A DNA stretch of 64,000 nucleotides. It comes from Amoebophrya sp. A120 (lineage: Eukaryota; Protista; Dinoflagellata). The position numbers and the translations under genes are program-made. Where the stretch lies: positions 14,219,265 to 14,283,264 of the forward strand of contig CAJINV010000001.1 of assembly GCA_905178155.1 (NCBI GenBank), given 5' to 3'. The notes under the pieces are model-generated. The model worked only from the letters and a program-made list of their open reading frames with translations. It made no database searches and was not told the origin of the DNA. Positions 1 to 41,000 of this stretch are shown one piece after another. The stretch's first letter is position 1; each line of letters starts with the position of its first letter.

Positions 1-3000
1 ATCTTCAGCACGCAACTTTCTGCCGCTGTTCCTGGCTCTCGTGCTGAAGATTAGTGATAGATCATACACACCACGAACATGAGCGTTACACCAGCATTCT
101 CCTTGCTGCAGGAATCAAGGTTGAGTGACCCAAGCCAGGAAAAAGGACGACAGATTACAGAAGTAATTTGAATTTCTGCGAGATCACACAACACAAGGAA
201 ACTGTGAAAAATTATTTTTTCAATCTTTTCATCAAGCAACGAGCGACTCTTGAAACATCAAGGGTGGGCAACATAGATAGTTAGTACTACTAGAAGAATA
301 ACGAAGCACGTGAGTTGTACATTCTGCCCGGTGTCGCAGCGTGTTGTACCAAACATTTTCCGCGGAGAAGACGACATTTACTTTCTGAATCGGGCAGGTG
401 AGGGCGTACGGTGATGGTCCCGCTATGGCAGATCCAGTAAATCGACCTGAGATGATAGGCAGCACAGGATTTCAAAAATTTTCGGAATATGACAAGGTTT
501 CTTGTTATTAATTTGGTTATTTCGCATTGGATTCAGACTGTTCCAACTCACTGTCACAGCGTCCTTGATCATGAATGAAATATCTTTTTCAATACCCTTC
601 TTCGCGGCTTCGTGTCGCTCGCGTAGGCGTTTTATGATAGTGGACAGTCCCCCTCGCCCAACTATTTTTCCGCACACATAAACGCAAAACTTCCAGCATT
701 TTTCTAGCGCTTTTCAGCAATACGACCTTGCGTGAGAGGAAATCGCATTTACAAGACTTCGCACAGTACTGTGATCCACACCAATGTCGTGCTTTGGTCT
801 GTCAACACATAAGGTTGATCTACGTGTCCTCTGATGTTGTCTCTGTTGCTCGCTCTTGGCCTTGCGCCGTATTAAACTCTACCCATTAAATATTCGAGGG
901 GATGAAGCTGAAGCAAGGGTGGGTGGAGTAGAGATGTCCACCTTGATACGCTTTACGCACCCCGTGATCGCCCCTACCGGTCCTGCTTGGTCTGGGTCGG
1001 CAGGTACGGCATTGTAGTAGGTCTCGCCCCGGCGCGGCACAAAGTAGCAACGGTTGGTGATTGGGTCCCAGAACTCGGTGTTGCCGCTCAACTGGTCCTG
1101 GCGCATCACATACATGCCGTCCCCGTCAGGAATCGCATCCACTGCCACACAAAAGCTTTTTACTTGGTGCCCAGGGTCCACCTGAAGGTTGTGTGATAGA
1201 AGGCGCGCTGTAGGAGATGTTCTTGCAACTTCTTACGATTCCACCACGTCGGTGAACCAATTGCAACGCGACATTCATCGAGAACAGAACAGCAAACTTT
1301 TTGACAAAACAGTGAGCAAAAACAGGAAAACCATTTTGAAAACGTCGAACAAGAAAATCCCTCCTATTAATACTTCCCCCCGCTTCGCGTCGATGTAGTT
1401 GAAGTAGTTGCACAAGAGTATGGCGTGCTCCTCGTAGTCCCCACACGAGATGTCCAGAAAAGTTTTGGAGGTGCACCAGAGATCCACAGCCCGGCCTTCG
1501 AACATCTGCCCGTCCGTCATGAAAGTGATCAGGGAGACGAAGCGAGCGCATTTTTCGATGGCAAAGGGGTCCATCATGTCTGCCACGATGTCCTCGGGTG
1601 GCGCTTGGGGCGTGATGAACCGCGTCACCAGCCGCGACCGGCCCTCGATGTCCGTGCCGAGAGCTTGGGCCAGGTTCTCCTTCACGATGCGATCGGAGCC
1701 TAGGGATGCCATCCACTGGTGCACGTGGTTCAATATGGCTCGGGATTCTTTTCCGGGAATGATCGGCGCATTGCCGCTCTCGGGCTCCGTCAGCACGCGG
1801 TCGAGCGTCACACTGGCAAACAGGAGCATGGGCTCCTCATTCTCTTCGCCTGTTTTTTTTTTAGTTTTTACATTGACGGCGCTAGCGCTTCCTCGTGAGC
1901 ATTGCGCTCGTGAATGACGTTATCCACGAGCGTATACTTACAGAAATATTTATAGTATCTTATCTGTTTGCTTATGCTTCGACTTTCCATGCGTCAATCC
2001 TTTATCTGCAGTTTGTCCCAGCAGAACGTTCTCCAGTGGGTTTGCGGCGTAATGTCAAAATAGGATTTTTCAATGAACCACAACCAAAGTAAGTAATGCA
2101 TAAGCATCAAATAAAGCGTATGATAAACCTTGGGTTGGATCTGGTGGCATTCCTTGTGCCATGCGCTGCTGTGCGGCAGCAGAGGGCGGTTTCTGGTAGC
2201 CGATGATTCCTACCGGCGCGTCGACGCGAAAGCGACCTTCTATTTTGCAGTTGTTTGCCAACACCGTGGGCCAAGGGAGCGCAAACGTCCCCAAATAGCG
2301 CCTCTCTCGCTTGGTGATGACCGCACCGCCCTGATTGCCATAGTTGTTGCTCGACCCGCTCATGGACAGGCTCGCCGTGCCCCCCGCTCCGGTTTGTATG
2401 CTGATCTTATTCCCTGAAAATTAAGCATCCATCCCCATCCACTTTTGCATGACAAACACAGACAAGACTTTTTTGCATGACAAATTGGATGGAGATGGTT
2501 ATTTAATTTTCAGGGAATAGATCTCCGTCTCGTCGAAAACGTTGAAATGCAGGGCGTTCGTGAACGCGTTGAGGGCGTCACCGGACAAAGATACGTTTGG
2601 GTTGAGCCCACTGGCCAGCGGGAAGACGCGGTGCTGGTTGATGTCTGGGTTCAAGCCCGGTATGCGGTACCCGGTGTCTGTTTTCAGCTCCATTTTGTCC
2701 ATGTTTTCGAAGGCAAGTTCCACGACGACCTCGGACACCGTGAGGCCCCTCTGGTTGCGCTCCAGCGCGGAGGGTATCCTCAGCGGCACGTTGTACAGCT
2801 TGGCCACGTTGATGTGGATGCCCGCGCGCTTGGAGCTGGGGTCGTGCAGCCGCTGCTGCATGGCCGGCTTCAGCGGACGCCGCGGCTTCAGGAGCGAGCT
2901 CAGTTTCTGCCACAGTGCGGCCCAGTCGATCTCCTCAGCGTCCTGCCCGTATTCGCGAACGACCGTTTTCACGGAGTACTTCCGCTTTACCGAAGACACC

Positions 3001-6000
3001 ATGCGAGTTCGCGCTTGGATCGCGGCGATGAAATCCTCTACCGCGGTCTCTTCCGCCTCGTCCTGCGAAGGCGGCTCCGCCGCCTGGGTTGTTCCGAAGG
3101 GGTCCGCAGGCGGAGCATCGCCTGTGGTTGGATAGTTCGCAACGAATTCTTAAGCGTCGGTGGCGGAAAGATAAGATCTAGTAATAAGTCGAAGTGCGCT
3201 CCTTGTATAATGTAGTTGTCCTGCTACTTAAGGTCAGATCAAAAAAGATAAACTGCAATATTTTTCAACATCTTCTGCAAAAGTCGTACTTTTCCTCGGT
3301 GTCAAGTCTTTGGGCTTGGGCGGGAGTTTGACTGCGACCGCCGTGCCGTCCTGCGCCGTGCTTGTGTCCTCGCCCGTGAGAATAGCGCGCGCGTTCGCGG
3401 AGATCTGTTGCATGCGCACCTCCTTGTCTGTGGCGGCAATCTGCTCCCCGCCCGCCGAGTGCTTCTGGGCCCGGAAGGCCAACTTGTGAAACCGGCGAGA
3501 CTGCTTCACGTTGCCCCAGTTGACGAATTTCAGGTTGCAATACAGCGACTTCAATGCCGGGTCAAAAGCGGTGGCTTCGGATTTGTGCAGCAACACGTCA
3601 AGCTCGTCGCGGCTTTGCTGTACCATGGGGTGGATCATACCGAAAAGCGCACCCATACGCATACCAGATAAAGACTGAATTTGCATATCCTTATCCATAT
3701 GCTGCGTTCATGGCGTAGTTGTGAAGATGCTGATCCGCAACAGGCAGAAAACAAGCCTGTCATGCGGATTGGAGATTGTATTTGTATTTGTAACTCCCGG
3801 ATGAAAGGGTACTTACAACTGGAGACACCGTTCGAATATTTGTGAAGCAGAAGAACAGACAAGAGCACCAGCATTTTTGTTTTAGTCTTGTCTTGTACGT
3901 GAAAAACTGCCCAAAAAATCTACTATGGGCGTTCTTTTTTGTAGGATAGGGTGGTTTGGATCGAACCGGAGGTCCTCGAGAAGTTGCTGCGTTCGCGAGA
4001 CCAGCAGACTGGAACCTCCGCCGCCAAATGCATCCGCGTTTTGAGAGTCTGTAGTTTTCATGCCTCGTTGGCGGGCAAAAGAACCAAGCGACAATTCAAG
4101 GTTGGGTGCACACCCAACTGCACACGACTCAGGAGATATTACAAAGCCTGCATCATGAAAAAATGGGTCCTTGGAGGAAAGGAAGTTAGTAAAAAATACT
4201 TACTCCGAGGGTCCTTGCCGCCTTGTTTGGAAAACCGCGAAAAAAAGGGCAAGTGGGTTCCTTCTTCAAACGCGCGGTGCAGACTTTCCATGGCCGTCGA
4301 ATCTGCCAGGGGCTGTGGCGGCAAGGCCCCGTCCTTCATCTGGTTGAGCGGCACGGGCCAGAACGTGCGCACCTTTATTACGCCGGTGGTGGTGCTTGTG
4401 TCCTCCATGGCAGACTGCAGTTCCTGCCTGGTTTGCGATTCCCGCTGGTGCGAGCGCGGGGTGCTTGCCGAGGTCCCCTCGACGTAGGTCTGGGTGGAAG
4501 TCGAGGAACGGGTCCCGGCGGCCGTAATCGCGCCGTCGGAGCCAAAAACCAGCTTCTGCCGAATGATCGGAGTGTGCGTCACCCGGGTGCCTTCCGCCGC
4601 TGGAATGGCGATCTGCACGCCACCAATTTTCGTCCACTTCCGTATTCTACCATGCGAGAAGATTCCCAGCGCGCGGGGCACTCCGACCCACACTTGCAGC
4701 TCGATGGTGCGCGGCATCGTGTGCACGCACAGATCAAACGTGTAGGGGCAGGCGGCGCGGGCGAGATCTGCGACCGCCCCGAGGTCCTGGTCTAAGATGT
4801 TACCTGGAATGAAGTGAGCGGAATCAATGGATACCTACGATGCTGCGAGGTGCGACGAATCTAAATAGCCCATTATTTCGCGGAGAGTTGCGTGCAACAT
4901 CGTGATCCATCATGATCTTGATCATCATGGAGGATGTACGTCGCGCAATATCCAAACTTCATCTGCGCTGTTTTTTGTAGATAAGTACTAAGGTTCGCGC
5001 TGGTGCTCCAGGAGTCCCACTGCACTGGCATCGCGCCGGATGTCCCGACTTGCTCTCCGTTGACCACTATCCTGTGCAAAAGTACCGCACTCGTTGTAAT
5101 TACAGTCATATATCAACATCATGCAAATGCATCGCAGATCTACCTTTCTATAAGATGTAGCATGATCATTGTGCTTTTGCTTTTGTGCTTGTGAAAATTT
5201 GTAAAAATGCAGCCATGATGTATAACTACTGCGATGCCGAAACTTTTGCACTGCATAACCACGCATGTGATCTCGACCTTCAGTACCCCACTTTGCAGCC
5301 GGCGTCGACGCTCGAACTCCTGCAGGGAGATCGGGCGGAGCTCGTCCATGTTTGTGACGCGTTCTCTCCTCCAGGAGAGCTCAAAGCGGTACGTGTCCGC
5401 CCCGGGCGGACGCCAGTTCGTTGCGTACCACTCGCGGAGCTGCTGTTCCGCCTGGCTCGGGTCAAATGGCTGCTGCTCCTGCTGCGCGAGGAATTCCAGC
5501 TCTTCGAGCTCCGCCTGCAGGTACTGCTCCACGCGTTTCTGGTCCTCTATGGGGCTCTCAAGCGTTACGTTGAGTGCTGTTGCATGTTGCTTTGTCACGC
5601 ATCAAAGTCTACCTCTACTTCGCGTGACAAGTCATTTAAGTACTTCTCTGTAACGCAAGAGGACGCACAGCAACCTTCCACCCTTCACTGTAGTTGCTAT
5701 TCCGGTGTAACAAACTCACGTAACAGGAACAGTCAACGTAACGCTTGAGTAGACTCCCATATCCTCCTCCGCATTGTGCGAAACCACCTGCGCTTCCAAC
5801 TTCACGGGCGTGCTGACAAAATTCTGCGTTTTGCGCAACGTGCGCAGCTGTTGCCACGTTTTGTACAGTGCGTCAGACACCGCGCTGCGTTCTCGTTTTA
5901 TGCATGGAGCAGATGTCTGTCTGGAAAGTCCAAGTTGTATATGCAAGTGAATTCAGTGAATGACAATGATAACAGCACTGCAAGATTAGCGATACACAGG

Positions 6001-9000
6001 CAAACCTGTCGACAGTTTTTTTATGAAGGGCCGTGAGTTAGTCCCACCGATTCCGCGTGGTCAGCTCCGTGTTTGCATGATCACAGGCAAGAGGACTTCG
6101 CGAGCCTATGGCTCAAATAGTCATATTAGACATAGGCATAGCTCAGACCGCTCATTAATATGTCAGACAAGCTCAACCTCAAGCATGCGACGTGTTGCAA
6201 TCTTCTACAGCCAGACATCTTTGCAATGCATACGCTCCACCTCCGTGCGAATGCTGCGAAATTTTTTCCTTTCCTGTACGTGCAATGCCCACCGGCGCTC
6301 CAGCGCATCCTTTTTCTTCAGCTCCGCGTCGTCCGCGGCGTCGCCTGGTCCGAGCGCATTGGATTGAGGCTGTTGCGCCTGTGCCTGTTTCAGGCTTTCC
6401 AGTAAAGTTTTGCCGTACGCCATCCAGGAAAAAAAAAACGCTACAGTAGTTCATCATACATCGTCGCTCAACAACACTTCTCGACGGCAACACAAGTCTG
6501 CCCTGCAGGACAAAAAAGCTTGTGCTTAAAGATTGATAGTGTGGAGATCTCAACAAGTGAAAACACGCACGAGACGAGACTTCGACGCTGTATTTCGGTC
6601 ATCATGGCAGAAGTTGCACTAGCACCACCTGTTGCCAACGTTTAACTAAGTGTACTAGAAGTACGACGCTAGTAGCTCCTGCACATTTTTCTTGCGATAA
6701 AGGCCACTAAGGCGTCGAACCGGCCGTCGAGAATCTCTATCGGATCTCCTTCTTCGCGGCGGCGGTACTCGTCGTATTGGTACAGGAGTCGTGCGGTGAG
6801 CCGGTCCTCCTCGGAATACAAGGTCGTCAGGATCTCCTTCGCGTTCTTCTCGCGAATGCCCAAGCCGTGCTGAAAAGAGGTAAAGGTGACCGTTTCCAAG
6901 CAGATCTTCAACGAGTACATGTGGTCGGCTTTCAACTGCATCCTTTCCGCCCGGAAGTTGTTCATCCGCTTGAACAGGGACCGCTCGTGTGAGTTCAGAA
7001 ACACTGGCATGGTTTGCCTGCTGGAAACCACTATGGATTGCAAAAATGTCTGGGTCTGGAAAGTTGGAACGTGTAATGCTGGTCTTGCATTCCTGTGAAA
7101 TCTGTATTGCATGACCAAAAACAGTGGTGGCCCCTTATTTCATACAAAAATGCAGTTTCTCATGTGGAGTTCGTATGAGAAGGCGTGCTGCAATCTTGTC
7201 ATGTTTTCCTGCATAAGGAAGTGACTTCCTCTTGCACATTTTAGCATCACAAGTTTCTAGACCCAGACATTTTTGCATTTGATAACCACCTCAAAGTCGC
7301 AAAACTGAATCAGCTGCTCCAGCTCCGCGTAGTACTGCTGCCAGGTGGGCAGCGTGCCACGCTATGGGCTGCAAGTATGTCTGGGTCGTCTCCCGGAGGA
7401 GGAGGAGCGCCAGCCTGTGTAATATCATACCCTTGCAACGCGTTGTAAGTGAAGCCAAACTCTGCTGTGCATGGAGCGGATCAGCGTCAGCACCTACATA
7501 GATTGGCATCCAAAAGCGTCACCCTTGTTCCTGTCATGCAGCTATTTTCTTTGGTAGTTAGTGGAGTTCTTTCCTCATGGAGACACTGTCTAGCGCTACA
7601 AGTTTCCTTCATCCCGGCCCAAACTTAGTTGCAGTGGATACGCGCTTGCGGGCAACGATTTTTTGGTACATGTCTTCCAGCGCGTTTCCGGATTGGGGCT
7701 GCGTCGCTCCTGGAAAAAATAGAGACTTTCATCTTCAGGTGATTTGATGATCCGCAATGGAGGCAAGAACTGTAAAGAAGTGCTCGTCCTTCCAAATGCA
7801 AAGTCATTGCTCTTGGTGCAACCACATCAGATGTAAAAATGAACGAAAATACGACTACAAAAGATTCTTGACAGCCGGAGTTGTCTGATACCATAAGCCT
7901 GCTGCTGTCTCGCAATGACGATCGGTCCTGCGCTACTGTCGCCTCCTACTTGTGGAAACTCGGATATTTGCTGGCACTTTTTGGCCAGGGCGATTTTCTC
8001 GCGCATTAGCTGCAGCAAGAGGCGCCAGTAGTTCCACGGTTCGTGCTCCCGCAAGTTCGCTCGACTGCGAAAGAGTCCGTCGTCTGCATTCAACAGTGCG
8101 CGGACAAAGTGGTCGTAGTGCCAGTCTTCGTGCAACACCAGCGGATTTGTCGTGAAGGCGTGGTGGTGCAGCGCAAGCCAGCGCACTATCCACAGTAAAC
8201 GCGGCGTACAGGTACAGTTGGGATGAACCATGCACAACAATTAAACTTTCAGACCATCAAAACCATACTCGCATGGGAATCATTGTAAGAATTCATCTGG
8301 CGCTCCTGACTAAGACTACGTAGTAGGTTTTGGACGAGTGGCAGTCAGTGGCAAAAACATCACATTCACAGTTCTAATTTTGTATCGTCATGCATGTTGT
8401 AGCTGTACTCACCTGTACGCGCAAGGAGCGCACGCATGGGAATGGGAAATTTGTATTCCATACGTGAGAGGAAGCCTTCGCTGCCTGCCAGGGCGCGGAC
8501 GCGGAGCAGAAAAGGATGCAGGGGTATCATGGACATAACTTGCTCTTCGTTTTTGGTAATCGGACTTTGCTCCAGTGTTGGATTGCGACATCTCGTAACC
8601 ACGGTTCGGTCCCCACCGGCACTGCGCGTCGCCTTCTTCGCGCCTCCGACGCGAGAGAACATCCCCGCTCCAGGGTACGGCGCAGAGGAATTGCGACCCC
8701 CATTTCGTGGAGGTGGATACGAGGCTGACATGGCAGTGTCGCCATTTGGATTGTTGTTCCCCTGTCCACCGTCCATGGTTCCGAGGCCCGGCAATTGCTG
8801 CGTTGAGCGCGGGTCTTCTTCCTTCTTGCTGGATCGCGTTACGCGGCTCACGAGACCCCCTAGGGCGGCTTTCGTGCTGTTCTGTGGTGAAATTTTGAAA
8901 CGCAGAAATTTTATTTTGGTTTTACCCTTCACCCATTGACCTCGCACATTAAGTGTACAAATATTAACGCTGAAATTGTGAGGCATGCACGAGATGATAG

Positions 9001-9768
9001 TGGATCAAACCGAAAATGTGATGGTATCCACCAGCGCAGCATGTTTATTACTGCAAGATCAGCCGCTTTTGATCCAGTGGTCTGCTGGTTGTCACCTCCA
9101 CCAGGTGGATTGTTTCCCGCGCCGAAAGCCGGTGTCTGACCCCCTTGCTGCATGCCGAACCCCCCGGGGGGGCCGGTACCGGACCCACCGAGGTTCATCC
9201 GTGGACTGGGCTGCGTGGCGGTGCTGCCAAATCCGGCTCCAGGTCCACCGAACCCGGGCGTGCTCCCCGCGAAGGAGGGTGGTATCAAAACGAAGAAAAT
9301 AAATCTCCCTTAACTTTCCTCACATTTTCTACTTCGTTCTAGTGCTGGGCATAAAATAATCAGAATTTTGCGACGCCCTCGAGATTGGCGTACACAAATC
9401 AAAATAGAAATTAGCAATTGGCTGCACCATTGAGGGATCGCAGAACTGCGCTTCTATTGATTGTGCACCAGTAATTGCTGCATACGCATCGAGAAGTTTG
9501 ACAAATCCAATATCCATGGTGGGTTTGAAAGACGTACCATTACAGATGGCCTTCAGAATGCTGCCTGCAGCTCTTGGTTTCCATATACTTATGTGCAAGA
9601 CAAGGCCGATCATTTGTGGCCACAACAAGGAAGTCGGCATGGCAAAGTTTCCCTTGGAGGATGGAGTGGGGAGATTATCTTCCTCATAATAGGCTGCTGC
9701 CCTCCGCCAAACGTGGCGGTCGAGGAGGAGGACCCCCCATACTGAAACTGGCTGGAGTTGTTATACAT
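1..9768 (-). CDS. CC2D2A: CC2D2A/MKS6-like ciliary transition-zone protein (multi-exon; 3' end probably runs off the window start)
   Basis: Exons carry CC2D2A/CEP76-type C-terminal motifs in order: HFNVFDE, ERRYLGTFALPW..IEGRFRVDAP, CARFVSLI, DLWCTSKTFLDISCGDYEEHAILLCNYF, AIPDGD.YV, EFWDP, CPIQKVNVVFSAENVWYN. A C2-like segment and coiled coils lie upstream. Exons join in frame across GT-AG introns (e.g. 1182-1373, 1850-2128) and TIR elements. The start ATG at 9768, whether the low-complexity N-terminus belongs to this gene, and several junctions are uncertain. Confidence 0.8.
2408..2519. mobile_element. TIR introner-like element, family D (112 bp), direct repeat GATCT
   Basis: GATCT|TATTCCCTGAAAATTAA...TTAATTTTCAGGGAATA|GATCT, with a perfect 17-bp inverted repeat that extends imperfectly. 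Removal with one repeat joins FDETEI to SIQTGAGGTASLSMSGSSNNY in frame. Confidence 0.92.
5068..5257. mobile_element. TIR introner-like element, family B (190 bp), direct repeat ACCAC
   Basis: ACCAC|TATCCTGTGCAAAAGT...ACTTTTGCACTGCATA|ACCAC. Removal gives KVEITCVVNGEQVG in frame. Confidence 0.9.
5548..5761. mobile_element. TIR introner-like element (214 bp), direct repeat TCCTC
   Basis: TCCTC|TATGGGG..CTCAAGCGTTACGTTGA...TCAACGTAACGCTTGAG..CCCATA|TCCTC, with a perfect 17-bp inverted core. Removal gives NAEEDQKRVEQYL. Confidence 0.92.
5899..6232. mobile_element. Degenerate TIR element, family A (334 bp), imperfect repeat CGTTT/CGCTC
   Basis: Left end TATGCATGGAGCAGATGTCTG versus reverse complement of right end TATGCATTGCAAAGATGTCTG. 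Removal gives RTEV(E/K)RERSAVSDALY. Confidence 0.8.
6421..6699. mobile_element. Strongly decayed TIR element (CAT...ATA ends, repeat TACGC/AAGGC)
   Basis: Weak inverted repeat ATCCAGGAAAAA versus ATCGCAAGAAAAA. Removing element plus 5 bp joins FDALVA to (Y/F)GKTLLESL in frame. Confidence 0.5.
7032..7284. mobile_element. TIR introner-like element, family A (253 bp), direct repeat ACCAC
   Basis: About 31-bp TIR, TATGGATTGCAAAAATGTCTGGGTCTGGAAA...TTTCTAGACCCAGACATTTTTGCATTTGATA. Removal gives QFCDFEVVSSRQTMP. Confidence 0.93.
7363..7640. mobile_element. Degenerate TIR element, family A (278 bp), repeat CACGC/CGCGC
   Basis: Left TATGGGCTGCAAGTATGTCTGGGTCG versus right reverse complement TATCCACTGCAACTAAGTTTGGGCCG. 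Removal gives MYQKIVARKRGTLPTWQQYY. Confidence 0.8.
9283..9691. mobile_element. Degenerate TIR element (409 bp), repeat GGTGG/GGCTG
   Basis: Left TATCAAAACGAAGAAAATAAATCTCCC versus right reverse complement TATTATGAGGAAGATAATCTCCC. Removal joins two Gly-rich exons in frame (GGGQQPSFAGSTPG). Confidence 0.65.
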
Positions 9769-10762
9769 GACACGGCGGGGTAGAAGACGGGCAGAAGCCA
9801 CGGCCTAGTCAAGCCTTCGGAGGCAAAGTAGAACGAACCGAATGAAGCCGAAGCTCCGAGCGCAGGAGCAGGACCATCTTGCGTTCACAAACTTCTGTAG
9901 TACTGCACTTAACTAATGACGGAGTAGAGTTGTTAGAGTGCTGCCAGCAGCTGCCTGCAAGACGTATGAATCATAAGAGGTTGTTGATGTAGTTCATCTG
10001 GACTGTTGTATCGGTATGGACACACACGCCTTGGCTTTTTTTCTTTGTAAGTTATACAGTCATTCGCATTCCCTCGACTACAAGTCGCGCATCTTGCTGC
10101 GCTCCGCTCTCAACGTAGTTTTCATCTAGATACTCATACACTCATCCGGCGTGGTGACCTTTAGCTTCAAGAAAGATACACTCACACAACTCCAACCGGA
10201 TTTCATGTACACTACCTACGATGATCCCGTCAGCGTTGCCGGAGTGACTTTTCTCCTGGAACAGGTGGCAGCGCTGACACCAAGGGCGCGCCCATGCTTT
10301 GATCTCGACAACTCCACGTGTGTGCCTTCGTGCTGTCGCTATTGGGTTATGGTGCCTTTCCATTTATTTGCTTCGAAGATGAAACTTTTTGATTTTGTGC
10401 CGCGATAGTTCGCTCTCCAACAACGGACCACATTTTATTGATATGTTTCCAAAAAAATTCTACATCAAAAACATTATTTGTAAAGAAGCAGCCACGTCGT
10501 CGAACAAGTGGTCTTGAAGAGCACACTCGTCAAGCACACCTCTTTTTCATATCTTACAAAAAATAATCATGCTATCTAACTCAAATAGCCTGCAGCGTTC
10601 TTTGCATTTATGGAAATTGCGTTTGTTCGTGTACTTAGTGGAGCGATCTGCCTAGGAAAGGAACCACGCAGTCTAGCAGCAAGCAGGATTTTTGGGATGA
10701 AAAAAAATTGGAACCACGTATATCGTAAGTAGATGTTGTTATCGATTCGGATATATTGCACC

Positions 10763-13642
10763 TCATGCTTCTACTTTTGACGGCAGCGCGCCCTCCACAC
10801 CGTCGCACGACGCTTCGACAGTAGAAGATGCCCCTTTCAGCAGCGTTTTCCAGACGTTGCGCTTGGCAATTTCCTGTGCCTTGTTGCGGAGATAGACGCG
10901 GAAATGGAACAGCAGGTACCCCAACGCGGACAACAACACGACGCGGCGGCGCTGGTCGCGCGAGCGGGTGGCGAAGACAGCGAGAAAAGCAAAAAACGCG
11001 GCCGCTTTCTGGCCGTGGCCGGCAAAGTATGACAGTGTACAACCTGCTCCCCTCCCCGTTTTTATTTGCCACTGCCAGGCTGATGAGCAGCAGCAATAGA
11101 TGCAAGGCCACCACAGAGGCCTCCGCATGACAAACCCGCACACAGCTTGTCGTGCGTTTTTTTTGGTGTTCAAAAATTGTCATGGATGTTAACATGATGT
11201 TGATGCTTCAAGCAAGGCAAGAAGTGGATTTGTTGTTTTCCGTAACAAATGCGGGAAAGGGACAGGGAGAGTTCGTAGTTGTGCACTCGCATACAAAGTA
11301 CCGCTTGGTCAGCTCGGCGTCCGCCAACCGCTTCGTGATCTCGTATCAAACTAAAAGGCGCACAGACTCCAGAAACCTCAGTGAATGTTTCTACGTGCGA
11401 AGCAATCTTCTCTAGCTCTGTGGAGCCATTTGCCACCGTGCCTGCATACGTAACACAAGTTTTTGTTTTCGGGGACCAAAACCAATGCATAGCGAAGAAA
11501 ATAATGCCCTAACAACTATATAAACATGAAAGAGAAGAAGTCGAAGTTCAAGTTACTACTTCGCAATACAAACTACACTTAGAAATTCTTTCTAAGAGTG
11601 TTGCACTTTTCATTTGATATCTCGTCCTGCTGCTTCTTGCAGACCTCGCCCCAGACCTGCACCGCTACACGCTGGGACTCCCACTTCTCCTGAGAATGGT
11701 AAACAAACAGTGCATGAGTTTGAGAAGTCATGCTCATGAGTCATGTACACTGTTTCACTTGCCATTGCTAAGAAGAAACCAAACATGCAACGTGAAATAG
11801 TACTACACCAGTACTTCTTGAGATTAAAAATGTACTACTCAACTTCGGCAAAGATGACAGCTCGAACAGTACGTGAAGATCTCTTGTCACTACTATTCGT
11901 TATTGATACCTGCACAAAAACCCGGTTGCTTTCCCATTTCTCCTGCAGGTACTTCTTGACCACTTCCGCGCGACACTTTTCGCGCACCGTCCGATAGAAG
12001 GCCTCCACGTCCAATCGCTTGGAGAGCAACTTGCAAAACTGGTCGTGCATTCGCGTTACCCGGTTCTCTCGCGCCACCACGACTGCTGCGTAACTCTTCG
12101 CGACCGTCTGCGCCACCTGCGGGCTGTCACGGAACATCGCCATCCAGTTCCTGTTAGTTGTACGTGGCATATGGAAATAAGTTGTAGCCAGCAACTTCAA
12201 CAGGTTCAAAAATTAAATCAGAATCAGGATTGCTCTCGTACGCATGATACTGTTTGAGTTTGTGTCAAGAATCTGTTTCTGTATCTCCTTCGAAAAGCTG
12301 TAGACGGTTTGTTGCTTAAGGTTCATCGTCGACAAGAGCGAATTAAGCTATTCCCCCACCTAAATGTCGAATCCGCTGCTGCTCGTGGTTCCGAGACGCA
12401 TTCCTTTACGAACTTCTCGTGCGCATTGTCGACAACGGCGCTGGAGTATGAGAGGGCACAACCCTGCGCGCCGCTCATTTGGCATGCAAAATGCCAAAAC
12501 TTCCCCTTTGCCTTCTGGTTCTGGCGCTGTCTACTGCATGACAAATTTCGCAACGAGAAACGAGACAACTTCTGGTCTGTCGTGACAAGTTACTTGTCTA
12601 TCACGCACAGCCCCCACCTTCGCGGGTGCTTCTGTTGCTGCTCACCAGGCCTCTCAAGTGAGCGGGGGGGGCAGTCGTTGTGCACTCTGATATGGGAGGA
12701 GCTTCCGATGTGGCGAGGTAGGCACCGGTGACGGCGTCCACGTCCTCGGCAGTGTGCATCATCTCATCTGGCGATGAATTGTTTCCCGCCACAACTGGCG
12801 AAGTGGTCTGTTCCGCCTGCTGTACGTCGTTGTACGGGTGACTGGCCTATCAACTGTAAAAATGTCTGGGTCTGGAAGAATTCATGTTTGTCATGCTTGT
12901 CTGGCATGACTCTAAAATCTTCCATGCACGTTACCCAAGAGCTCCGTTTTTCTGTGATGCAGAGCTGCAGTTTGTCATGCAGAATAGGCAACACCTAGGA
13001 GCTCAGAAACTTGTCATGCTGAGCCAGTATTCGTAGCCTCATCATGAGACGCCACCCAGCATCACAAGTTTCCAGACCCAGACATTTTTACTTTTGATAT
13101 GGCCACATTTGGGTAGATCGGAACGAGTTTCTGGCTCTCCATTATAACGCGCTCAGCTGTTACAATCTCAAACGTTACAATAGAATATGGTGATCTGTGA
13201 TGCAAGAGTGCATGACCTAGCCTACTCCCACAGGATTGCGCATGACAAGTTCTGGAGGCCAAATCCGCACTAGAATCTGGCGAAATTTGTATTGCGAAAG
13301 GTGGAACGCTGTGCGAGTCTGTCATGCTCATCATGCAACACAAATTCCAGATTCTATTGTAACGTTTGAGATTGTAACACCTGAACAGGTTATATCCATG
13401 CGGTCTTGCTTCTTAGTGGCATCAAATTTCGCGTCGCTCACACCGCCAGCTGAATATACACCGAAACAAGTGGTGGACTCCGTCACAGGTGTCTCAACTG
13501 GCGTGACTAGGGGCGTGGAGGAATTAGAATCACTGTAGCCCTGCTCTTTGGAGGTAGTAGTTCCGGCGTGAGCTGCTGGCTTTGGGGCGCCTTTGCTGGA
13601 ACCCTTGTTGTTCCCTTTGTTGTTTCTCTTCACTTTTGCCAT
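10763..13642 (-). CDS. Uncharacterised multi-exon protein with C-terminal hydrophobic segments
   Basis: About eight exons join in frame from MAKVKRNNKG (ATG 13642) across four clear TIR elements, two GT-AG introns and one unresolved intron, ending AAAFFAFLAVF...VVLLSALGYLLF. No family recognised; the 3' end is uncertain. Confidence 0.65.
11028..11293. mobile_element. TIR introner-like element, family C (266 bp), direct repeat CAAAG
   Basis: CAAAG|TATGACAGTGTACAAC...GTTGTGCACTCGCATA|CAAAG. Removal gives AELTKRYFAGHGQK. Confidence 0.88.
11344..11619. mobile_element. TIR introner-like element (276 bp), direct repeat TCTCG
   Basis: TCTCG|TATCAAACTAAAAGGCGCA...TGCACTTTTCATTTGATA|TCTCG. Removal gives KKQQDEITKRLAD. 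Confidence 0.88.
12848..13099. mobile_element. TIR introner-like element, family A (252 bp), direct repeat TGGCC
   Basis: 30-bp TIR TATCAACTGTAAAAATGTCTGGGTCTGGAA...TTCCAGACCCAGACATTTTTACTTTTGATA, with ends close to those of 7032-7284. Removal gives YPNVASHPYND. Confidence 0.93.
13143..13394. mobile_element. TIR introner-like element (252 bp), direct repeat TCCAT
   Basis: About 45-bp TIR with a perfect 29-bp core TGTTACAATCTCAAACGTTACAATAGAAT. Removal gives KKQDRMESQKLVP. Confidence 0.94.
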
Positions 13643-22902: not shown

Positions 22903-23924
22903 AACAAAATGACGCGTTGCAATCCAGCACCGATCGCGTAATTATGGTCTTTATGTTGTGGTATTTCTCGATGCTTTTCACTATTTACATGAGGTGACCG
23001 TCTCGTCAATGAAGCTCGAGTCAAAGAAAGGCCTGATGAGCACTGTGATCGCAAAATTCCTGATCAATATTTCTGCCAAACCTGCACAGAGCAAGAAATC
23101 GAAGATGATAGTGAGGCTGGCGCTCAATTTGTCGAACACCTAGTAGGTACATAGGCGGCGTTCTGATGAATGCCTTTTTTCGATTTTGATGAGACATTGA
23201 AAGATATCACAAATACGTATAGTGTCGTCTTCTCTACTTCGTTTCTACGATAAGTACTCAAATACCAATATTCGACAAGACATTTTAGATTTCATACGTC
23301 TGATTTCTTTACTTATACTTTGTACAACGAGCGGAAAGTAGAACTACCTGAAAAAAGAGAATCTTCGCTATCATTGTTCATTGAAAACAAAAACAAACGC
23401 GCCTCGAAAGTAAGGTGCGTCTGTGCCTGCTGTCGCTCTCGCTGCCACTTAGCACTTAGAAAATAACAGAAGTAGAAGTAAACCGCGTAGTACGACAAAG
23501 AGGTGTTCTGCTTCTCAGTAAATAACGTGTAAAGTAGCTAACTTGCTGACGCTGACGCATCTGCATCAAAACTCTGCTAGAAACCATTCATTTTTATCCT
23601 TCCAAAAGATGCCGAGAAACCACTCCCAAAAACGTAGAAAATCCTTGCGGCCAAAAAAAATTCAAATCCATTGAACCACTCGGACTCACTTTAATCAAAT
23701 TCCTCAACCGAGGACCTGCTGGAAAAACGAAACCACATAGTACACATCCCTTTTGTTTGCCTCGATAATGGAATACGGCTTTGAAGCTGGTGGTGTAGGT
23801 GTAGCCCCATGGATGAACATATGAAACGGGACAAACACTTGTTACAAAAACACTAAAAAGCAATGCAATAGCAGCAAGTCCAAGTCCATGCTCTTTTCTA
23901 CTTTCCACCACTACTATTTCCACC

Positions 23925-28731: not shown

Positions 28732-31028
28732 TTACATTCCCAGCTTCGCTTTTAGCGCCCTGTTTTCCGTTTCCAACTCGGCTATTCTTGCGTGCGCCTG
28801 CGCCAGCTCCTCCTTGTACTCCCGTATTCCCTTGGGTTTTGCAGCGGCGCTCCCGTTGGACGCAGACGCGAATACGCCGCTGCCGTCCGTGCGGCTCTCG
28901 CGGTTCATGCTCATGCGCGTCCGCGGCTTCTTCGCGCCGCCCTCCCACTCGTCGGCAGTGAGCGAGGCGATGGGCGCGAGGGTGTCGGGGTACAGGTCCG
29001 ACTGGAAGGCCTCCGATTTTCGCGGCACGACGAAGGAGATATAACAGTGCACAACTCCCCCTCGCCCTCATTTGTCATGCAAATTACCCAATCCACGTCC
29101 ACCCTTTTTCTCTTGGCACTGTTTGCATGACAAGTTTTGGTACCCCAAATAGCACTACACTCCAGTGCAAATTTGTTAAGCAAAACCGGCACTGTTGCTG
29201 ATGCTTGTATTGCTGTTCATGCTATACAAATGAGGGGGGGGGAGTTGTGCACTGTCATAGGAGATCGCCTGCACCGCCCCGGACTCGCATTTCACCCCGC
29301 GCATGATCTCCTTCTTCGCGGTGTCCACGGCGTACTTGGGGAGGAAATCGAACCCCTTCTGGGGCGTGGTGGACCGGTAGTCGGACACGTAGTGGAAAAA
29401 GGGCGCCTCCTCCACCATTTCGAAGTACTTCACGTTGCCGTCGCCCTTGCCTGCCAGGTACAGCATCCGCGTGTCCGCGTCGTAGAAGGGGAAAAGCGCG
29501 CCCGTTCCCTGATCCAGGGGCAGGAGGTGCAGGGGCTCCGACCCGGCGGGCTCCGCGGTGAAGTTGCGCAAGTCCCACACGCAAACCTGCCTCTCCGCCA
29601 TACTGCTGAAACCGGTCGTAAGTACTCGGTCTGTTTATTTGATTTTGTTGTAGGTCGAAGATGATGAACAATTTGCGCTCATGCAAACGAATTTTTGTAC
29701 TTCTACTTTTAAAATAGCGATTGCGATGCAACTGCGGAGCTATGTAAAAGAAGCCTAGAACGACGATCGCAGCGACCAGGAAAGCGAAACCACATAGACA
29801 TGTCGTAACAGAAGTGGCTAGCTCGCGAAATTGCCAAAATTGATGGAACAGACTCCAGATGAGTTTTCTTTTCTATCTAGTATGAAGATCTGAAAAATCA
29901 TAAAAAAGAATGTTTTCTGCTCCTTCCTACTCACCTGTTCGATGGTTATGTCCGTCCAGCCAGAGTGTTTTCATGCTCTTGACTCCTTCGTGCGCCCGTG
30001 TGAGTGCCACCACCCCTTTCTTCACCCTCGGATCGATTATGTGGACGAATTTGTCCTTGCAGCAAACCGTCAGGAGGTCGCCATCGTGATTCCACCTGAT
30101 GTGCTGTAGTAGGTCCGTAAAGGGCACCTCAAGCACGGCGTCTTGGGTCTCCGTGTTCAATATTCTTACGACATGGTCGTAAGCGCCCGTGGCTACTATC
30201 CCGTTGGCGGCCGGATTGTGGTGCAGAAGACTTACCTGTGCTTTTGGTGTTGCTTGTGGCACTCGAAGTTTGCTGGCTTTGTGGACGTGCTTGTCCCCAT
30301 TAGCCTCTCTGATTCAGCAGCACGTCTAGCATATCGTGGTCGAGACGATACAAAAAGATCACACAGAAACCTTACTGGACGTAAGGGCGCGGACAAAAAA
30401 GAAAATCATGCTTTCTCTTTCATTTCATTATCGACATGTACCTTCTTTGGGTGTGGTATTTCGCACACACTTTGCTTCAAGTTTTCCTTTAGGCCTCCGT
30501 CTGGAATTTGGAATATCCTAAAGTGACAGTCTTCACTGACAGACGCGATCATGTTTTCGTCGAAGGGATTGAACTCGAAATCGAGTACCTATGGAAGGTG
30601 TGCTTTTTCTGACCATCAAGAACTGAGTACTTTTCCTAACGAAGTGAATGCGATGAAGTAGTGCTGCAGCCAAGTAAGTTAAAACAGTTGCTGCAAGAAC
30701 CATGGCCGACTTATGATGTTATGGAATAAATAAACAAGTAAAAATCCTGCTTCTTCTTCTAGGCGTGGAGAAAAAAAGTTGCACGTACCCCGCCCTGGTG
30801 TCCGGAAATGACCGGTATGCTTGGTGGCATTCTCCCTTGTTGTTTCCAGTCGAGTAGACATATGTTGCCTCCGCCGCCGGTACCCCATGGTATGGCGACA
30901 AACTGGCTGTTTGCCTTCACGCCGGAGGACTCCGATACCTTTGTCGCCGGCCTCAAATCTTCCCATTTTGCCTTCCAGGGGTCGCCCCACACGTGGCGAA
31001 AGCTACTCTGCCGGACGATGTTTGCCAT
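28732..31028 (-). CDS. Coronin (WD40 actin-binding protein), 5 exons
   Basis: [80 protein letters not shown] and a C-terminal coiled coil. Three GT-AG introns plus one TIR element. Confidence 0.96.
29040..29259. mobile_element. TIR introner-like element, family C (220 bp), direct repeat GGAGA
   Basis: GGAGA|TATAACAGTGCACAACTCCCCC...GGGGGAGTTGTGCACTGTCATA|GGAGA. Removal restores coronin [10 protein letters not shown]. Confidence 0.95.
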
Positions 31029-35000: not shown

Positions 35001-38000
35001 ACCACTTCTCTCTGCAACAGTTCGTTGTGCGTTTTGCTCACAATATCATCCACATCTTATCAGCTGCAAATTATGCGCCAAAGTCTTGGAGGGCGCATGC
35101 TCGCTGACATTGCACCAGCTATAGCGGCCCATATCGAGTCCAGATTGAAGAATACCAGACTTGCACAACGTCCTCTAGTGGGGTGTTTTCTTGCCCGAGC
35201 ATATCGGCGATTACGTTGAATTTTGCCACTGTGTATGCTTGCGAACAGAAACCGACGAAGGTCGTGCTCGTTCTTTCGCTAGACGATGAGTGCTGCTCTT
35301 TTTGTTCCACCTGGGGCGTCTGCGAAGATTGCGAAGGAGTCATACCGTTGGGCCCACGATATTCACTTGATGAGTTTGCCTGCTGTGCAGTGTGGTTTTT
35401 GGTGCGTTGTTTGTTCGCGGACAGTCTCTGTTTGTCACAGCCTCCCGTCGAAGACAACGTGGTAGCTGCGCCATTGTTCTTATCGGTCTTTCCGTCGGAT
35501 GAGCCTTGCGAACCGATCGGGGCAGCTTGTTGCGCGTGTTTTTTCTCTAGTGGAGGAACAGGTGAAACCCACTGCGCGTTCAGAAGCTCTCGAAAGTCCA
35601 AAAAATCGAGCTGGACGTGGGTGGACCCTTCCGTTATTGTCACGTCAGTTGGCGGACCCCAAGAATCGAAGGGGTGGATTGTTATTTCTTGTCGGATCTT
35701 CTTCGCTGATGCGCACACACCATCTTCGCTGGTGCTCGTCGGGCTGGACATTTTTTCCTCCACAGGGGCGTTGCGGTTTGTCATCTTATTGGCCTCATCT
35801 TCCCCCCCGCAGCGTCTTGTTTATGAGAGAGCACAACTCGTCCCCTGCCCCCCTTGTTCATTTGGATATGCAAAACACCAAACCCACTTTTTGTGTATCA
35901 ATGGCGCGTTCTAGTTCTTGAAGCACTGAGTGCGTGACAAATTTTGATGAAACCTCGTCAAAGGGAAGTGCAGATTTTGATCTGGTATGCGGAGGCAAAA
36001 TTATTTCTGCCGTTGCTTATGCTTGCGTTACTGCGCAACTACATGCCCTTCAAATGAGAGGGAAGTGGGGTCGTTGTGCACTCTCATATTGTTCGCAAAT
36101 CCAATACAAAAGCGTGTGTGCGAAATTCATGTTGATGGTCGTCTCGAAATGTCCTCGGGCTGGACACTTCGCGGTGAGCAGGGACAGTGGAGGAAGCGGT
36201 GTCCTTGTCCTGGTGTACGACGTCCCTCACCGTCGGCGTCTTCGTTCCTCTGACGCTTTTCCTTTGCGCATCGCAACAAGAACCGGAAATAGCTTTTTTC
36301 TCAAAGGTGGGCCCAATTGTGAAAGGCTTACGTCGCTTAGTTCCATCTTGAGATGAACCGGCTGTAGCTGTATGCCAAGAAGAACGGTGGACCACGACGT
36401 CGTCGAGACTGCTGCTCTGATTTGAGTCAGGATCAGGTGTCTGCTGGGCTGGTGACTTTGAGTGCGTGGAAATCACGCTTCTTGTCGAGGACGGATCGTC
36501 CTGCTGTTCGTTTTCGTTCTGCTTCATCTTCTTGAAAGCACCACCGCTCTCCTCGATCCACGTCAGTTTTTTTGCATCAGTTTCCGCGGCCAAAAGACCC
36601 CGACTTTCCATTTCCTCGCGCAGTATCCGATGGGCCTCCCCTAGCTGCGCGTCCGTTGCATCTAGACTGGGGTCGAATGTCTTTTCGCCTCTTTTCAGCA
36701 TCTCCCGCTTCCGTTCTTGCAACTGTGTTTTCCGTTCCAGTACATCGATCATCACGCTGCTTAAAATTTTATCGTCGGTGCAGCTCTTTACGGCTCGCTT
36801 CAATTGCGCTGTGCTGTCGTAAGAAATCTGGAATAAGTCCTCCAGCTGCCTTCGCGCATGTTCCCCATACGCCGCTAGGGCAATCTTTCGGGTATCTATC
36901 GAGTCAGGCTTTACCCTCAGAGCGAGGTCAATGGCGAGCGACATGGGTCGCGCCTGCGCGGACATGCATGCATGGCGCAGAATCTTGGTCGCAAGGTCGC
37001 GCTCAACGCCGAAATAAACCCACTTGCTATCGGGATCGACACCCTCATTCGCTTTGGCTCTTTGGATGTGCTTGAGATCGTAAATCGTCGGACAATCTCT
37101 TGGCATCCGCCAACCTGGACCTGCGGAAGTAAAGCACGTATGGTTGCGGGCATACTCCTGAAGCCAGTCACAGCTGTCGCTTAGCGCGCACAACGCCTTT
37201 GTGTATGAAGTCGCCGTAAAACCCAATGTGGCTGCGAGATTGAGATGACCGACAGATGTACCAATCATCATCGTATCGAAATCATCCATAAGAATCTTGA
37301 TGATTTTGCTAATCGTCTGCATCTGCCTCTCAAGAATCTGCTTCCTGAGGTCCGTTCTCTCTTGTCGGAGCTTGTAGTTCTGCAGCCGCAACGTAAACAT
37401 CTCTTCTCGGTGCTGTTTCATCTGCAGGCGCATTTTTTTCTCCGCGCGTCGCCCGGGGCGCTGCGGCGTATTTGGGAAATCATTCAGATCATCATCTACA
37501 TCTTTCTCCTGCTCCTCGATATCGTCTAGACTGGTTTCTTCAGTCTGGGCCGAGGTTGACGCCGGTGTAATTAATCCTTTCGAACAAGCACCGGATTGTA
37601 GATCCGTGTTCTTCTGAGCAGCGGGAACGAGGAGTCCGCTGTGCTTGCACTCTAGCTCCTGCTGTTTGTTCCTTTTCTTTGCAGCACTTTCGTCAAACGT
37701 GGCACGGACCAGTTGAGCGTCTTCGTTGGCTCGCCGTCCTTCTTGGTCCTGAGCCGCGCCACCAGCTGCAGCACCGCATGCGCCAAGTTCATCTTCGCGC
37801 TGATGCGCATAACCTCCTAGGCGGAACAGAATACGCACCGCTTCTCTGGTCTCCTGCTTCAGGGGCGACGGGGCGGGCACTGACGGTTGTGCGTTTGGGT
37901 CTGTACAAACCTCATCAAGTAGCGTTGTAGTCGGGGAGGCGGACGAAGTGGACGGCTTTGTGCATTTGTTGGCACCAGGATCATCTCCTGCTGCGCAGAA

Positions 38001-41000
38001 GATTTCAGTAAAGTATTCTCTCAGCGGGTATCGGCTTGGGCTTGTTCGTCCTGTAGTGGCTGGTAGCGACGCGACCGACGGCGAGCCGAGGTTTCCACTG
38101 CCTCCCTGCTGTTGAGGATTCCCTTCTCCTTGTTCCGCCTGTTCTTCTTCGTCGATATTCAACGAGCCCTGATCTCCTGGTAAGGCGTGTCCGTCGGCAA
38201 GCCTACGGATGTGCTTCTGAAAACGCACGATGAAGCCGGCCGCCGACATGTTGTCCAGTATGCTTCTGTCCGAGTCTGAATTGACATAATTGTAGCCCAT
38301 TTTTGCCTGTATCTCGTCCTGTTGTAGCAACAGTGCGAAAAACACAAGCTGCTCGCGCCAGGCTTCAACGACATTCGGGTCAAGCAACGCAGACACACAG
38401 CTCTGTAGCAAGCCGACGTGCATGAGTTTGAGGCCGTCTGCCCTCGCATAGAACGTGGGAGCCTGCGCGCAATTGGCTCCTCGTAGTTCGCCTTCGCGGT
38501 CTTGCTGTATTCCTTCGGCAAAACTGTTGTAAAGTAAGTCAGGCGTCGCGAGGATGTAGCCGGACTCTTCGCAAAGTACATGCGCGCACTGGCGCCTGGT
38601 TTCGTCGTAGTGGCAAGTTTGGAATAGGGCGCGCTGGAAAAGTGGCTTCGCTGCAGCGTAATCTTGGTGGAGAAGACGAGATCGGGCCTGTTCCAGTGCC
38701 ACTTTGTGCAGATCATGCTGCTCAACATCAACTACATGGTAATGAGCTTGCTCCTTCTCGTCCTTTGTAGAGCTGTTCGCTTTACTTTTATCTTCACATC
38801 CTCGCGAGGCAGGTCCTCGCGAGGCAGCTCCACCCGAACCACTAAAACTGCTGGACTGCTCTTCGTTTCCTAAAGACATCACGCCTGACAACAGCAGGAC
38901 TGCCGCGAACCCGAATGACCCGGTTGCCCTCATCCCTTTTTCTGTCACGTCTGCGGCAAAGTTTTCGAACCACTTCAGTGTGCCGGTTCCGCGATCCCAT
39001 CTCTTTCTTGTCGCTTCTTCCTGGAGTTTCTTTTCCTTTTTTCTTGTTTCCACATTATCCCGTGGCGAGTGAAGTCTTCCACCCGCGGGGGCGTCCCGCT
39101 CCCGACGGAGAATTCCATTAGCTGCACTGCTCTCCACGCCCGCTTCGTCGCTGGAGACACGGCAATAACCGTACAGTGCTGAGTCCAAGATAACTCCCGC
39201 TGCTGCTCCTGCGTACCGCGTCTTCCGAAAGGCGACCGCGGCCCATATGAGCTCTTTACCGATCAAATACACAATCGCATCTGGCACAGCCTCGTTCATC
39301 GCCCGCAACGCATCACCGAGAATTCGCCAAGCGCGAATATTGTCGTAATCCAAAACCGCAGCCTGTAGACATGCGCGGATATCCACAGAAAAAAACCCAC
39401 TCCCATCCATTTTTTGCATGACAGACACAGGACAGGAGTTCATGCAAGCTTTGCATGACATTGACAAATTGGATGGGGATGAGCCTTTTTTTGTGGATAG
39501 CGGATGGCGTCCGGGTATAGATTGAGCTTGTAAAGACACAGCCCGTAACTCGCAAGCAACCCCGAGTACTCCTGCCGATATTCGACGGCTTCAAGCGCAC
39601 GGCGACAGCAGGCGAAACGCACCTGGCAGAGTGCAACGAGTTCATGCGGAGTGAGGATAGAAAATGGATGTGATGAGGATGGTGCGACCGCACCAGTGCA
39701 GACGCCATCAGGATCATCGGCCTCTCGTCTCATGTTCGGTTCTTCATCCACGGGTCTCGATGAATGGCGTCTCACCTCCTCTGTAATTGTCGACCCGATT
39801 CTCAGCCACTGTAATGCCGTCTTTGGGTATTCCCAATCCAATATCGTGGCGTCGACCGAGGAGCCGCGCACCTCGATTTTGAAAGGGACACAGGCTGTCG
39901 TGAGATTTTCTTTCTCCTTCATCTTATTTCCTGGTGCAGCTGTCTGTTTTTTTCCTTTCGCCACCGGCGCAGTGCTTCTTCTTGAAGATGCAGCTCCAGG
40001 AGCTTCTACTTCGGCGCCACCGATCATTGATGAATCGTTGGTGCTGGTCGTAGGTGTCGCATCTTGTGGCACTAATATCGGATCCAGAATTCGCAAGCCC
40101 TGGCCAACGACGTAGTTTAGCTTTGTCTTTTCTGCTTCTTCTTCCTCCTCATGACATCGTGCCCAGTGTTGGCGTTGCAGCGCCGCTCGCTTTCGGTGCT
40201 TTTTTCCTCCTAATTCTCTTTCCTGCGCCTCCGGCTTTTCCTTTTTTCTTGTCATTTCGATCTCTCGTAGCCCGTCTGTGGCACAACAAGCCTTCTGTTC
40301 ATCGTGCGATTGCGTCTCGTTGCTTTTCGAAAGAGCATCCGTATTCTCTCGTCCACGCCTAGACGACGGTGTGTGGAAAGCCTGTTCATCTTCACAAGAG
40401 TCGCACTCTCGGCGTGCGGAAGTGGCAGTGTTCACAGTGGCCTCCGGCGGCTTTGGAGTGGCTGGCGTTTTTGCAGCTAGCTCAAGAGTGATCCCACTTG
40501 AGGCAGGAGCACCACTGCCCAGCGATGGGAATAGCCTGCTCGTCTGGCGTTGGTCCTGGGACTCGGCCTGGTACGACGTTTGTAGTAAAAGAACAGGAAT
40601 GCACTCACCACACAGGCTTTCGAAAATGAACGACGGACCGGAGCTGTTTTTGGGCCCCAATTCCTTTACTCGTCCAAGGAGCTGGTACAGCGTTCGAGGC
40701 GGTTCTGGTCTCTGGTGTGCCTGACCACTTGTGTTTTCAGCTTTATCTTTGAGACGTTGATGACCACGGTGGAAAAGCTCGCGCTCGCCGCTTTGCGTCG
40801 TCGCTTCAATTAAATCTTGAATCCGTAGCGTGAGAAAAAAATCACCATTGTCGCGGTGTTCGTGTTCCGTAGGGCTAGAGGGTGGCTGCGGCTGTGCAGG
40901 CTGAGCGGTGGAGATACCACACTCATTCTCTTGCTTGCTACTAGCGCGCTCGTCAGAATTCAATTTCGACGCACCGTCTTGGAACTCCTGCATCTCCGCT

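Follow-up and report, generated by a model that had tools for sequence, protein, structure and literature searches.

A common internal motif of TAT...ATA introners in Amoebophrya sp. A120 as a candidate subterminal site for their mobilisation

Results

In the window the octamer is confined to TAT...ATA elements

The window analysed here, a stretch of 64,000 nucleotides of Amoebophrya sp. A120 (contig CAJINV010000001.1, positions 14,219,265 to 14,283,264), is eukaryotic DNA with genes mostly on the minus strand, in which both GT-AG introns and short elements of the form TAT...ATA are present. The octamer GCATGACA, the commonest form of a 12-bp motif, is probably part of a subterminal DNA binding site for a mobilising protein complex, common to all families of these elements. 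This reading, one of two offered in the original prediction, is favoured on sequence comparison since the motif is confined to the elements, is present in all 12 families, stands at a fixed distance from the element ends and is conserved in the lineages that propagated.

The window elements start with TAT and end with ATA, carry terminal inverted repeats (TIRs) of 13-50 nt and are flanked by a 5-bp duplication; a caller requiring an exact duplication and at least 10 of 13 paired end bases made 11 calls in the window, compared with 0-1 in each of five shuffles. GCATGACA has 16 exact copies in the window (8 on each strand) against an expectation of 2.74 ± 1.66 (about two by the original estimate); the shuffle maximum was 7, and none of the 100 shuffles reached 16. 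Of 25,091 8-mers it ranked first with an order-3 Markov background (Poisson p 1.3e-8) and fifth with order 1, and its one-base variants were rare in the window, with the exception of GCATCACA (11 copies). The by-eye list of 16 coordinates proved exact and complete, and the statement that almost all copies lie within elements or other introns can be sharpened: all 16 are inside TAT...ATA elements, occupying 10 of the 19. Fifteen of them are in elements called from the sequence; the copy at 3758 was assigned to the element 3633-3948, whose left end is GAT, because the splice joint 3627>3949 spans it. The enrichment comparison proposed with the original prediction thus found the octamer confined to the window elements (16 copies in 4,675 nt, none in 19,141 nt of other non-coding DNA and none in 40,184 nt of coding DNA), and not equally frequent in all non-coding DNA. 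The coding model behind these figures correctly classed 97% of the confirmed exon bases and 96% of the confirmed GT-AG intron bases. A profile of the wider motif found sites in 17 of the 19 elements, with 11 weaker matches across the remaining 59 kb; neither profile nor octamer had a match in the seven GT-AG introns confirmed by RNA-like contigs (1,406 nt). The 16 octamers are not independent, since they come from about six families, including one homologous pair (2408-2519 and 39380-39499, 79% column identity).

The motif is common to families that do not align elsewhere

A terminal-repeat scan with one family as query gave at least 138 stretches, all from contigs of the related public assembly JACKZZ01 (loci L001-L133); these match the window solely in the elements. 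Once overlaps were removed, the sample comprised 636,773 nt and 557 called elements, with a false-call rate of 1 per 200 kb in shuffled sequence. Two matches in viral_contigs, L134 and L135, were apparent chance hits, excluded from all counts. Octamer density per kb was 6.34 in the elements (880 in 138,790 nt), 3.40 in element relics (187 in 55,069 nt), 0.35 in other non-coding DNA (69 in 197,956 nt, about 10 times the uniform expectation) and 0.04 in coding DNA (10 in 244,853 nt), an 18-fold excess of the elements over other non-coding DNA. The residual octamers outside elements frequently form clusters 30-37 nt apart, resembling decayed or missed elements, and under relaxed end-finding 13 of 79 fitted a candidate element. 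Two octamers were found in the 13 predicted GT-AG introns of the loci, too few introns for a control.

Clustering of the 575 elements of loci and window, with the motif masked, gave 12 families of at least three members (10 BLAST components) and 39 singletons or pairs. GCAT[GCT]ACA is present in 86-100% of the copies in all 12 families (exact octamer, 24-100%) and in 74% of the singletons and pairs (exact octamer, 62%). In an unbiased de novo ranking, GCATGACA was the top shared interior 8-mer, present in at least half of the members in 11 of 13 groups; the median number of sites per element was 2-5, compared with 0.015 in shuffles. The original description of these TIR families as unrelated goes too far: with the motif masked they do not align (E 1e-5), but all have TAT ends and 5-bp duplications, and unmasked interiors link family 0 with 1 and family 2 with 4.

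The 5-bp duplication was found in 111 of 133 anchored family-0 copies and, exact, in 446 of 574 called elements, the latter figure being biased by the caller. At the anchored ends the bases T, A and T were present in 296, 301 and 299 of 312. A stood at positions 11-13 in 86-92% of ends; families 4, 7, 8 and 9 have TAT and lack AAA at positions 11-13. The elements are short, non-coding and multi-copy, with TIRs and a target duplication, the traits of miniature inverted-repeat transposable elements and other non-autonomous TIR DNA transposons.

Sites stand at fixed distances from the ends

The family-weighted profile of the motif is GCAT[G 0.58, C 0.25, T 0.15]ACA(A/G)(A/G)TT. The sites keep clear of the terminal repeat, none being centred 7-27 nt from an element end; site density peaks at 36-39 and 45-49 nt, in both orientations, and the modal site lies at those peaks in 11 of the 12 families, family 9 having its first site at 56-60. 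A permutation test for 10-11 bp phasing gave 0/2,000, the signal coming from the first two peaks. The 1,142 adjacent site pairs of the larger sample include 703 direct and 439 inverted (306 divergent, 133 convergent), and the claim that the octamer often occurs in inverted pairs was overstated: in the window, the pairs 13240/13320 and 29073/29125 are inverted, just two of the five multi-copy elements.

Under the 12/23 rule of RAG and Transib-like systems, a short-spacing end must pair with a long-spacing end. A rule of this type was rejected here, with 37/47, 47/47 and 37/37 pairs all found (family 0, 90 long/long and 57 short/long; family 10, four short/short). The idea that positions 4-13 of the terminal repeat are a degenerate motif copy was also rejected as a rule, since it fits only part of the families and offset 4 does not score highest. 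GTCATGC/GTCACGC bears a possible resemblance to paired-domain sites.

The motif is conserved in lineages with descendants

Trees were built for 18 subfamilies (231 of the 575 elements). On internal branches the motif core changed at 0.0018 per cell, about tenfold less than the other interior bases (0.017); on terminal branches the values were 0.020 and 0.054. The contrast between terminal and internal branches was significant (Fisher p 8e-6; p 2e-6 in five large subfamilies). The motif was retained in copies with descendants; in single copies its loss is about 2% per base, comparable to the best-conserved positions of the terminal repeat. Subfamilies differ in how many sites they have, where these lie and which way they point, and the word itself is retained. 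Private core mutations were alike in coding (24/1,386) and non-coding insertions (37/2,365), and family-0 copies carry 4.4 sites in coding context (n=65) and 4.6 in non-coding context (n=73).

In loci L001-L133, positions 4-10 of the terminal repeat changed faster on internal branches (0.039) than the interior (0.017), with TAT and the A-run nearly fixed; exchange between left and right ends is a possible source of these fast positions.

The motif lies on either strand of spliced elements

The gene strand was assigned for 435 elements (18 of 18 window elements, minus). Sites in both orientations are present in 268 of them, sense sites alone in 63 and antisense sites alone in 84; the other 20 have no site. 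A strand-polarised group (2.6 vs 0.4 sites) was inserted 27 times in sense and 32 times in antisense, and orientation across five groups was unskewed (p 0.29). There was a slight antisense excess (193 vs 149 elements, p 0.02), and one subfamily was skewed in orientation (11:1 in one count, 25:11 in another). The element 2408-2519 has antisense copies only and yet is spliced out; 633-948 and 5899-6232 have no site at a position weight matrix score of at least 9 and yet are removed in the main contig. Site positions were similar at the 5' and 3' intron ends, and RNA folding of eight elements was uninformative (sites paired in some, unpaired in others). The motif is unlikely to be an RNA splicing signal, and insertion in both orientations disfavours spread by reverse splicing. 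The other original proposal, a recognition motif for the removal machinery, is accordingly disfavoured at the RNA level by the 27 sense and 32 antisense insertions and by the two site-free spliced elements; a mark on DNA that helps splicing is rather unlikely.

Splicing was followed in the contigs of runs X3 and X6, which were taken as RNA by guess, no run being recorded as RNA. They skip the seven GT-AG introns and at least nine elements, each with one copy of the duplication (among 15 of the 32 joints listed, and one contig-piece joint); nine window elements are spliced without GT-AG ends according to these RNA-like contigs. The DNA-like run X1 is continuous across 7262-12872. In runs X9 and X10 the window exons were uncovered; 84 raw RNA reads of X9 match 12848-12879 and then a different interior that also has TGTCATGC, probably one locus in a related strain.

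Where the two copies of the duplication differ (627-953, 5893-6237, 17167-17489 and 14967-15140), the spliced contig is informative on the cut point. The first three bases of the upstream copy (RNA sense) were kept in three cases, and base 5 came from the downstream copy in one; assuming a uniform mode of cutting, this places the cut immediately outside the inverted repeat, following base 3 or 4 of the 5-bp duplication. The element 3633-3948 is spliced despite its GAT left terminus, so removal does not depend on two perfect TAT ends; the transcribed strand of this element also has a GTAAGT (near 3811-3816) that was unused in the main contig.

The elements of the window and their surroundings

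Two spliced elements have no motif site: an old TAT...ATA element at 633-948 (duplication with one mismatch, joint 627>949) and an old family-0 element at 5899-6232 (duplication with two mismatches, joint 5893>6233). The element at 2408-2519, flanked by GATCT, has octamers at 2447 and 2475, both on the plus strand and so antisense in the minus-strand transcript (joint 2402>2520), and the GAT-ended element at 3633-3948 has its octamer on the minus strand. Also spliced out are 5068-5257, with one degenerate site at 5129; 5548-5761, with GCGTGACA variants at 5593 (minus) and 5622 (plus); the family-1 element 14972-15135, with three GCATTACAAATT sites (14967 joined to 15137); the degenerate element 17173-17484, with GCATCACA at 17262 (minus) and 17442 (plus); and 17517-17803, with a minus-strand octamer at 17707.

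Two further family-0 elements lie at 7032-7284 (four variant sites, including GCATCACA at 7244) and 12848-13099 (minus-strand octamers at 12889, 12973 and 13012; GCATCACA at 12953, minus, and 13059, plus). Members of family 4 are found at 29040-29259 (octamers at 29073, minus, and 29125, plus) and 35822-36088 (a GCGTGACA variant at 35932), and family-4-like ends at 11028-11293 (plus-strand octamer at 11125; an RNA-like contig piece stops at 11022) and 12447-12692 (plus-strand octamer at 12536). The remaining elements are 7363-7640 (minus-strand octamer at 7532), 11344-11619 (one variant site at 11563), the family-9 element 13143-13394 (five sites in total, including octamers at 13240, plus, and 13320, minus; an RNA-like contig piece starts at 13395) and the family-10 element 39380-39499, homologous to 2408-2519, with plus-strand octamers at 39416 and 39453.

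Fourteen of the 19 elements are within the first 15.2 kb and none was called beyond 39499, the region 39500-64000 consisting mainly of long unbroken minus-strand reading frames. Summed contig depth in the DNA-like run was about 270,000 at 12757-13099 and about 28 on the unique flanks; this is not a copy number, and is in keeping with a very high-copy family. Pfam matches on the minus strand were an aldo/keto reductase and DUF6817 (18715-22941), a weak calcineurin-like phosphoesterase with an element near its 3' part (14684-15841) and a mitochondrial carrier (46966-47610); Rfam had no match in the window.

Discussion

In the mechanism that we propose, the 2-5 internal sites of each element would be bound by a DDE transposase, which might be integrase-like, or by a host helper. 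The first site is about 37 or 47 bp from the end; these positions would be on the same DNA face, since the two spacings differ by one helical turn. The 5-bp duplication would result from catalysis at the TAT end, a copy deprived of its sites would no longer spread but could still be spliced, and the common internal sites would let families with different terminal repeats use one machine.

Several observations weigh against the binding-site reading. No autonomous element or transposase was found in the 637 kb; the long candidates in the loci are L014:505-1608, L055:13016-13888 and L045:5039-11235, and the eight open reading frames of the first two gave no Pfam hit. L055:13016-13888, an 873-nt TAT...ATA element with an exact 5-bp duplication, lacks GCAT[GCT]ACA. 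The sample is uneven, family 0 being the search target and over-represented (253 of 575 elements), and the common positions may be partly due to shared ancestry. Helical phasing over a longer range was rejected as unsupported beyond position 53, with no 10.5-bp phasing past that point (R 0.07). In small subfamilies the terminal/internal contrast was not significant (p 0.34). Even among the closest pairs the core exceeded the interior in conservation by a factor of 2-3 (0.021 vs 0.055, six pairs, p 0.08), a pattern that unsampled parents or weak selection by the host could account for. Loss of TAT was seen at 7 of 84 ends flanked by coding DNA and at 2 of 80 flanked by non-coding DNA; since TAT has no extra protection in coding context, the coding-context test is one without shown power. 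Finally, Farhat et al., in the excerpts of PMC7789003, found no transposase in A120 and argued against general mobilisation by transposases.

Concerning the long candidates themselves, L014:505-1608 (1,104 nt, four open reading frames) has a repetitive, GC-rich interior, with its motif sites concentrated within the first 350 nt; L055:13016-13888 has the repeats CCGTCTAC/GTAGACGG instead of the motif, together with an internal palindrome, and may represent a second class with another binding word.

Other explanations can be compared with mobilisation on the same evidence. It is rather unlikely, in our judgement, that the motif is read on double-stranded DNA by a DNA-binding protein of the host (a domesticated transposase domain, perhaps), which would mark the elements during transcription for the non-canonical splicing machinery. 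Such a mark would work on either strand, as the strand results need; the core exceeds the interior in conservation on terminal branches and between close pairs; and U1 small nuclear RNA was undetected in A25 and A120 (excerpts of PMC7789003). However, the main contig shows removal of the site-free elements 633-948 and 5899-6232 as well, family-0 copies carry similar numbers of sites whether the context is coding or non-coding, and conservation is strongest on the branches with descendants. A broader version, in which one DNA-binding protein encoded outside the elements both licenses thousands of introners, from many terminal-repeat families, to move and marks them for U1-independent splicing, seems improbable to a similar degree; with the same low probability, the protein would possibly be a domesticated integrase-like transposase, and mobility and intron recognition would share one cis-code. 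We consider it very unlikely that the motif is read in the pre-mRNA by a splicing factor, although the elements lack GT-AG ends and are nevertheless spliced, a skew in orientation occurs in one subfamily and GCAUG resembles the RBFOX site: the near-symmetry of strands with its slight antisense excess largely refutes this idea, 2408-2519 is spliced with antisense copies only, sites are similarly placed at both intron ends, and GCAUG is broken because position 5 of the motif is free (G/C/T).

The motif might also be inert and functionless today, an internal repeat inherited from one ancestor and multiplied by duplication within the element. TAT ends and 5-bp duplications in all families, and the unmasked interiors that join family 0 with 1 and 2 with 4, are what common descent would leave, but the core evolves about 10 times more slowly than neighbouring bases on internal branches, the word is kept while its number, place and orientation turn over, and no family alignment outside the motif was found at E 1e-5; we regard a relic as quite improbable. 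Least credible of all, and to be held barely possible, is a role not confined to the elements, the motif being a regulatory word (a transcription-factor site, for example) found in non-coding DNA generally. The 69 octamers in other non-coding DNA of the loci and the two in predicted GT-AG introns could be cited for it, but there is none in the 19,141 nt of other non-coding window DNA or in the seven confirmed GT-AG introns, and the residual sites, often 30-37 nt apart, look like decayed or missed elements. TGCATGCA, the apicomplexan AP2 word, is rare, with 7 copies inside and 12 outside the elements.

For A120-type introners, the excerpts of the paper describing them (PMC7789003) give no transposase in A120 and no signal beyond the terminal repeat. 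The 12-bp word offers a bait for the responsible protein, a signature for the autonomous element and its decayed copies, and a target whose mutation could separate mobility from splicing. Its presence in all families examined also suggests that the many published families are one system served by one machine. The principle of subterminal binding repeats is textbook knowledge, which limits the surprise.

Comparison with known systems

Introners of A120 are reported, in the excerpts of PMC7789003 (Farhat et al. 2021) and PMC12130899 (Gozashti et al. 2025), as many families of about 110-320 nt; they are non-canonical introns with short direct repeats and a TIR starting with TAT, followed by seven variable bases and AAA (PMC7789003). 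The excerpted criteria are a TIR with TAT, seven less-conserved bases and at least three A, with a 3-5 nt direct repeat at the exon-intron borders. The window elements have this TIR, direct repeat and non-GT-AG splicing, and match the published A120-type introners. No internal motif spanning families was found in the excerpted text and supplements of PMC7789003 or PMC12130899, nor in those of PMC12005148, PMC11282704, PMC11453091 and PMC9860276; within the literature searched, which excluded figures and subscription papers, GCATGACA is undescribed. The elements, their termini and the duplication are thus already published, and the common internal motif is new as far as searched. In contrast to the view of Farhat et al., a shared motif at fixed positions and insertion in both orientations point toward mobilisation by a transposase. 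Among the 38 of 58 A120 dataset rows seen from PMC12130899, fam38 has integrase-like homology with "5-bp TSD, TA/TA termini" (TSD, target-site duplication), and this family is a plausible partner of the motif-bearing elements.

The IS3EU and GingerRoot elements resemble those described here in their TA..TA termini, in having no sequence-specific target and, considering the integrase-related transposase suggested for A120 fam38 (excerpts of PMC12130899), possibly in their enzyme. According to the parts of PMC10045372 and PMC6839031 available, they usually make a 6-bp duplication; the word "subterminal" is absent from the available part of the GingerRoot paper (PMC6839031). Membership fails because a 6-bp duplication was found in 0 of 133 anchored copies, against 5 bp in 111.

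Maize Ds1 has only the terminal repeat and a few AAACGG transposase sites in common with Ac (excerpts of PMC3260210), and can be spliced as an intron, judging from reference titles in that paper. The elements studied here are likewise short and non-autonomous, with unrelated interiors and few copies of an internal word. In contrast, hAT elements (Ac/Ds) have 8-bp duplications and one common terminal repeat, whereas the duplication here is 5 bp and the terminal repeats differ beyond TAT; hAT membership was rejected, with an 8-bp duplication in 0 of 133 anchored copies, and the comparison with Ds1 stands as an analogy of working. The motif would fit the class of subterminal transposase-binding repeats, with several copies inside the ends, kept here in the mobile lineages.

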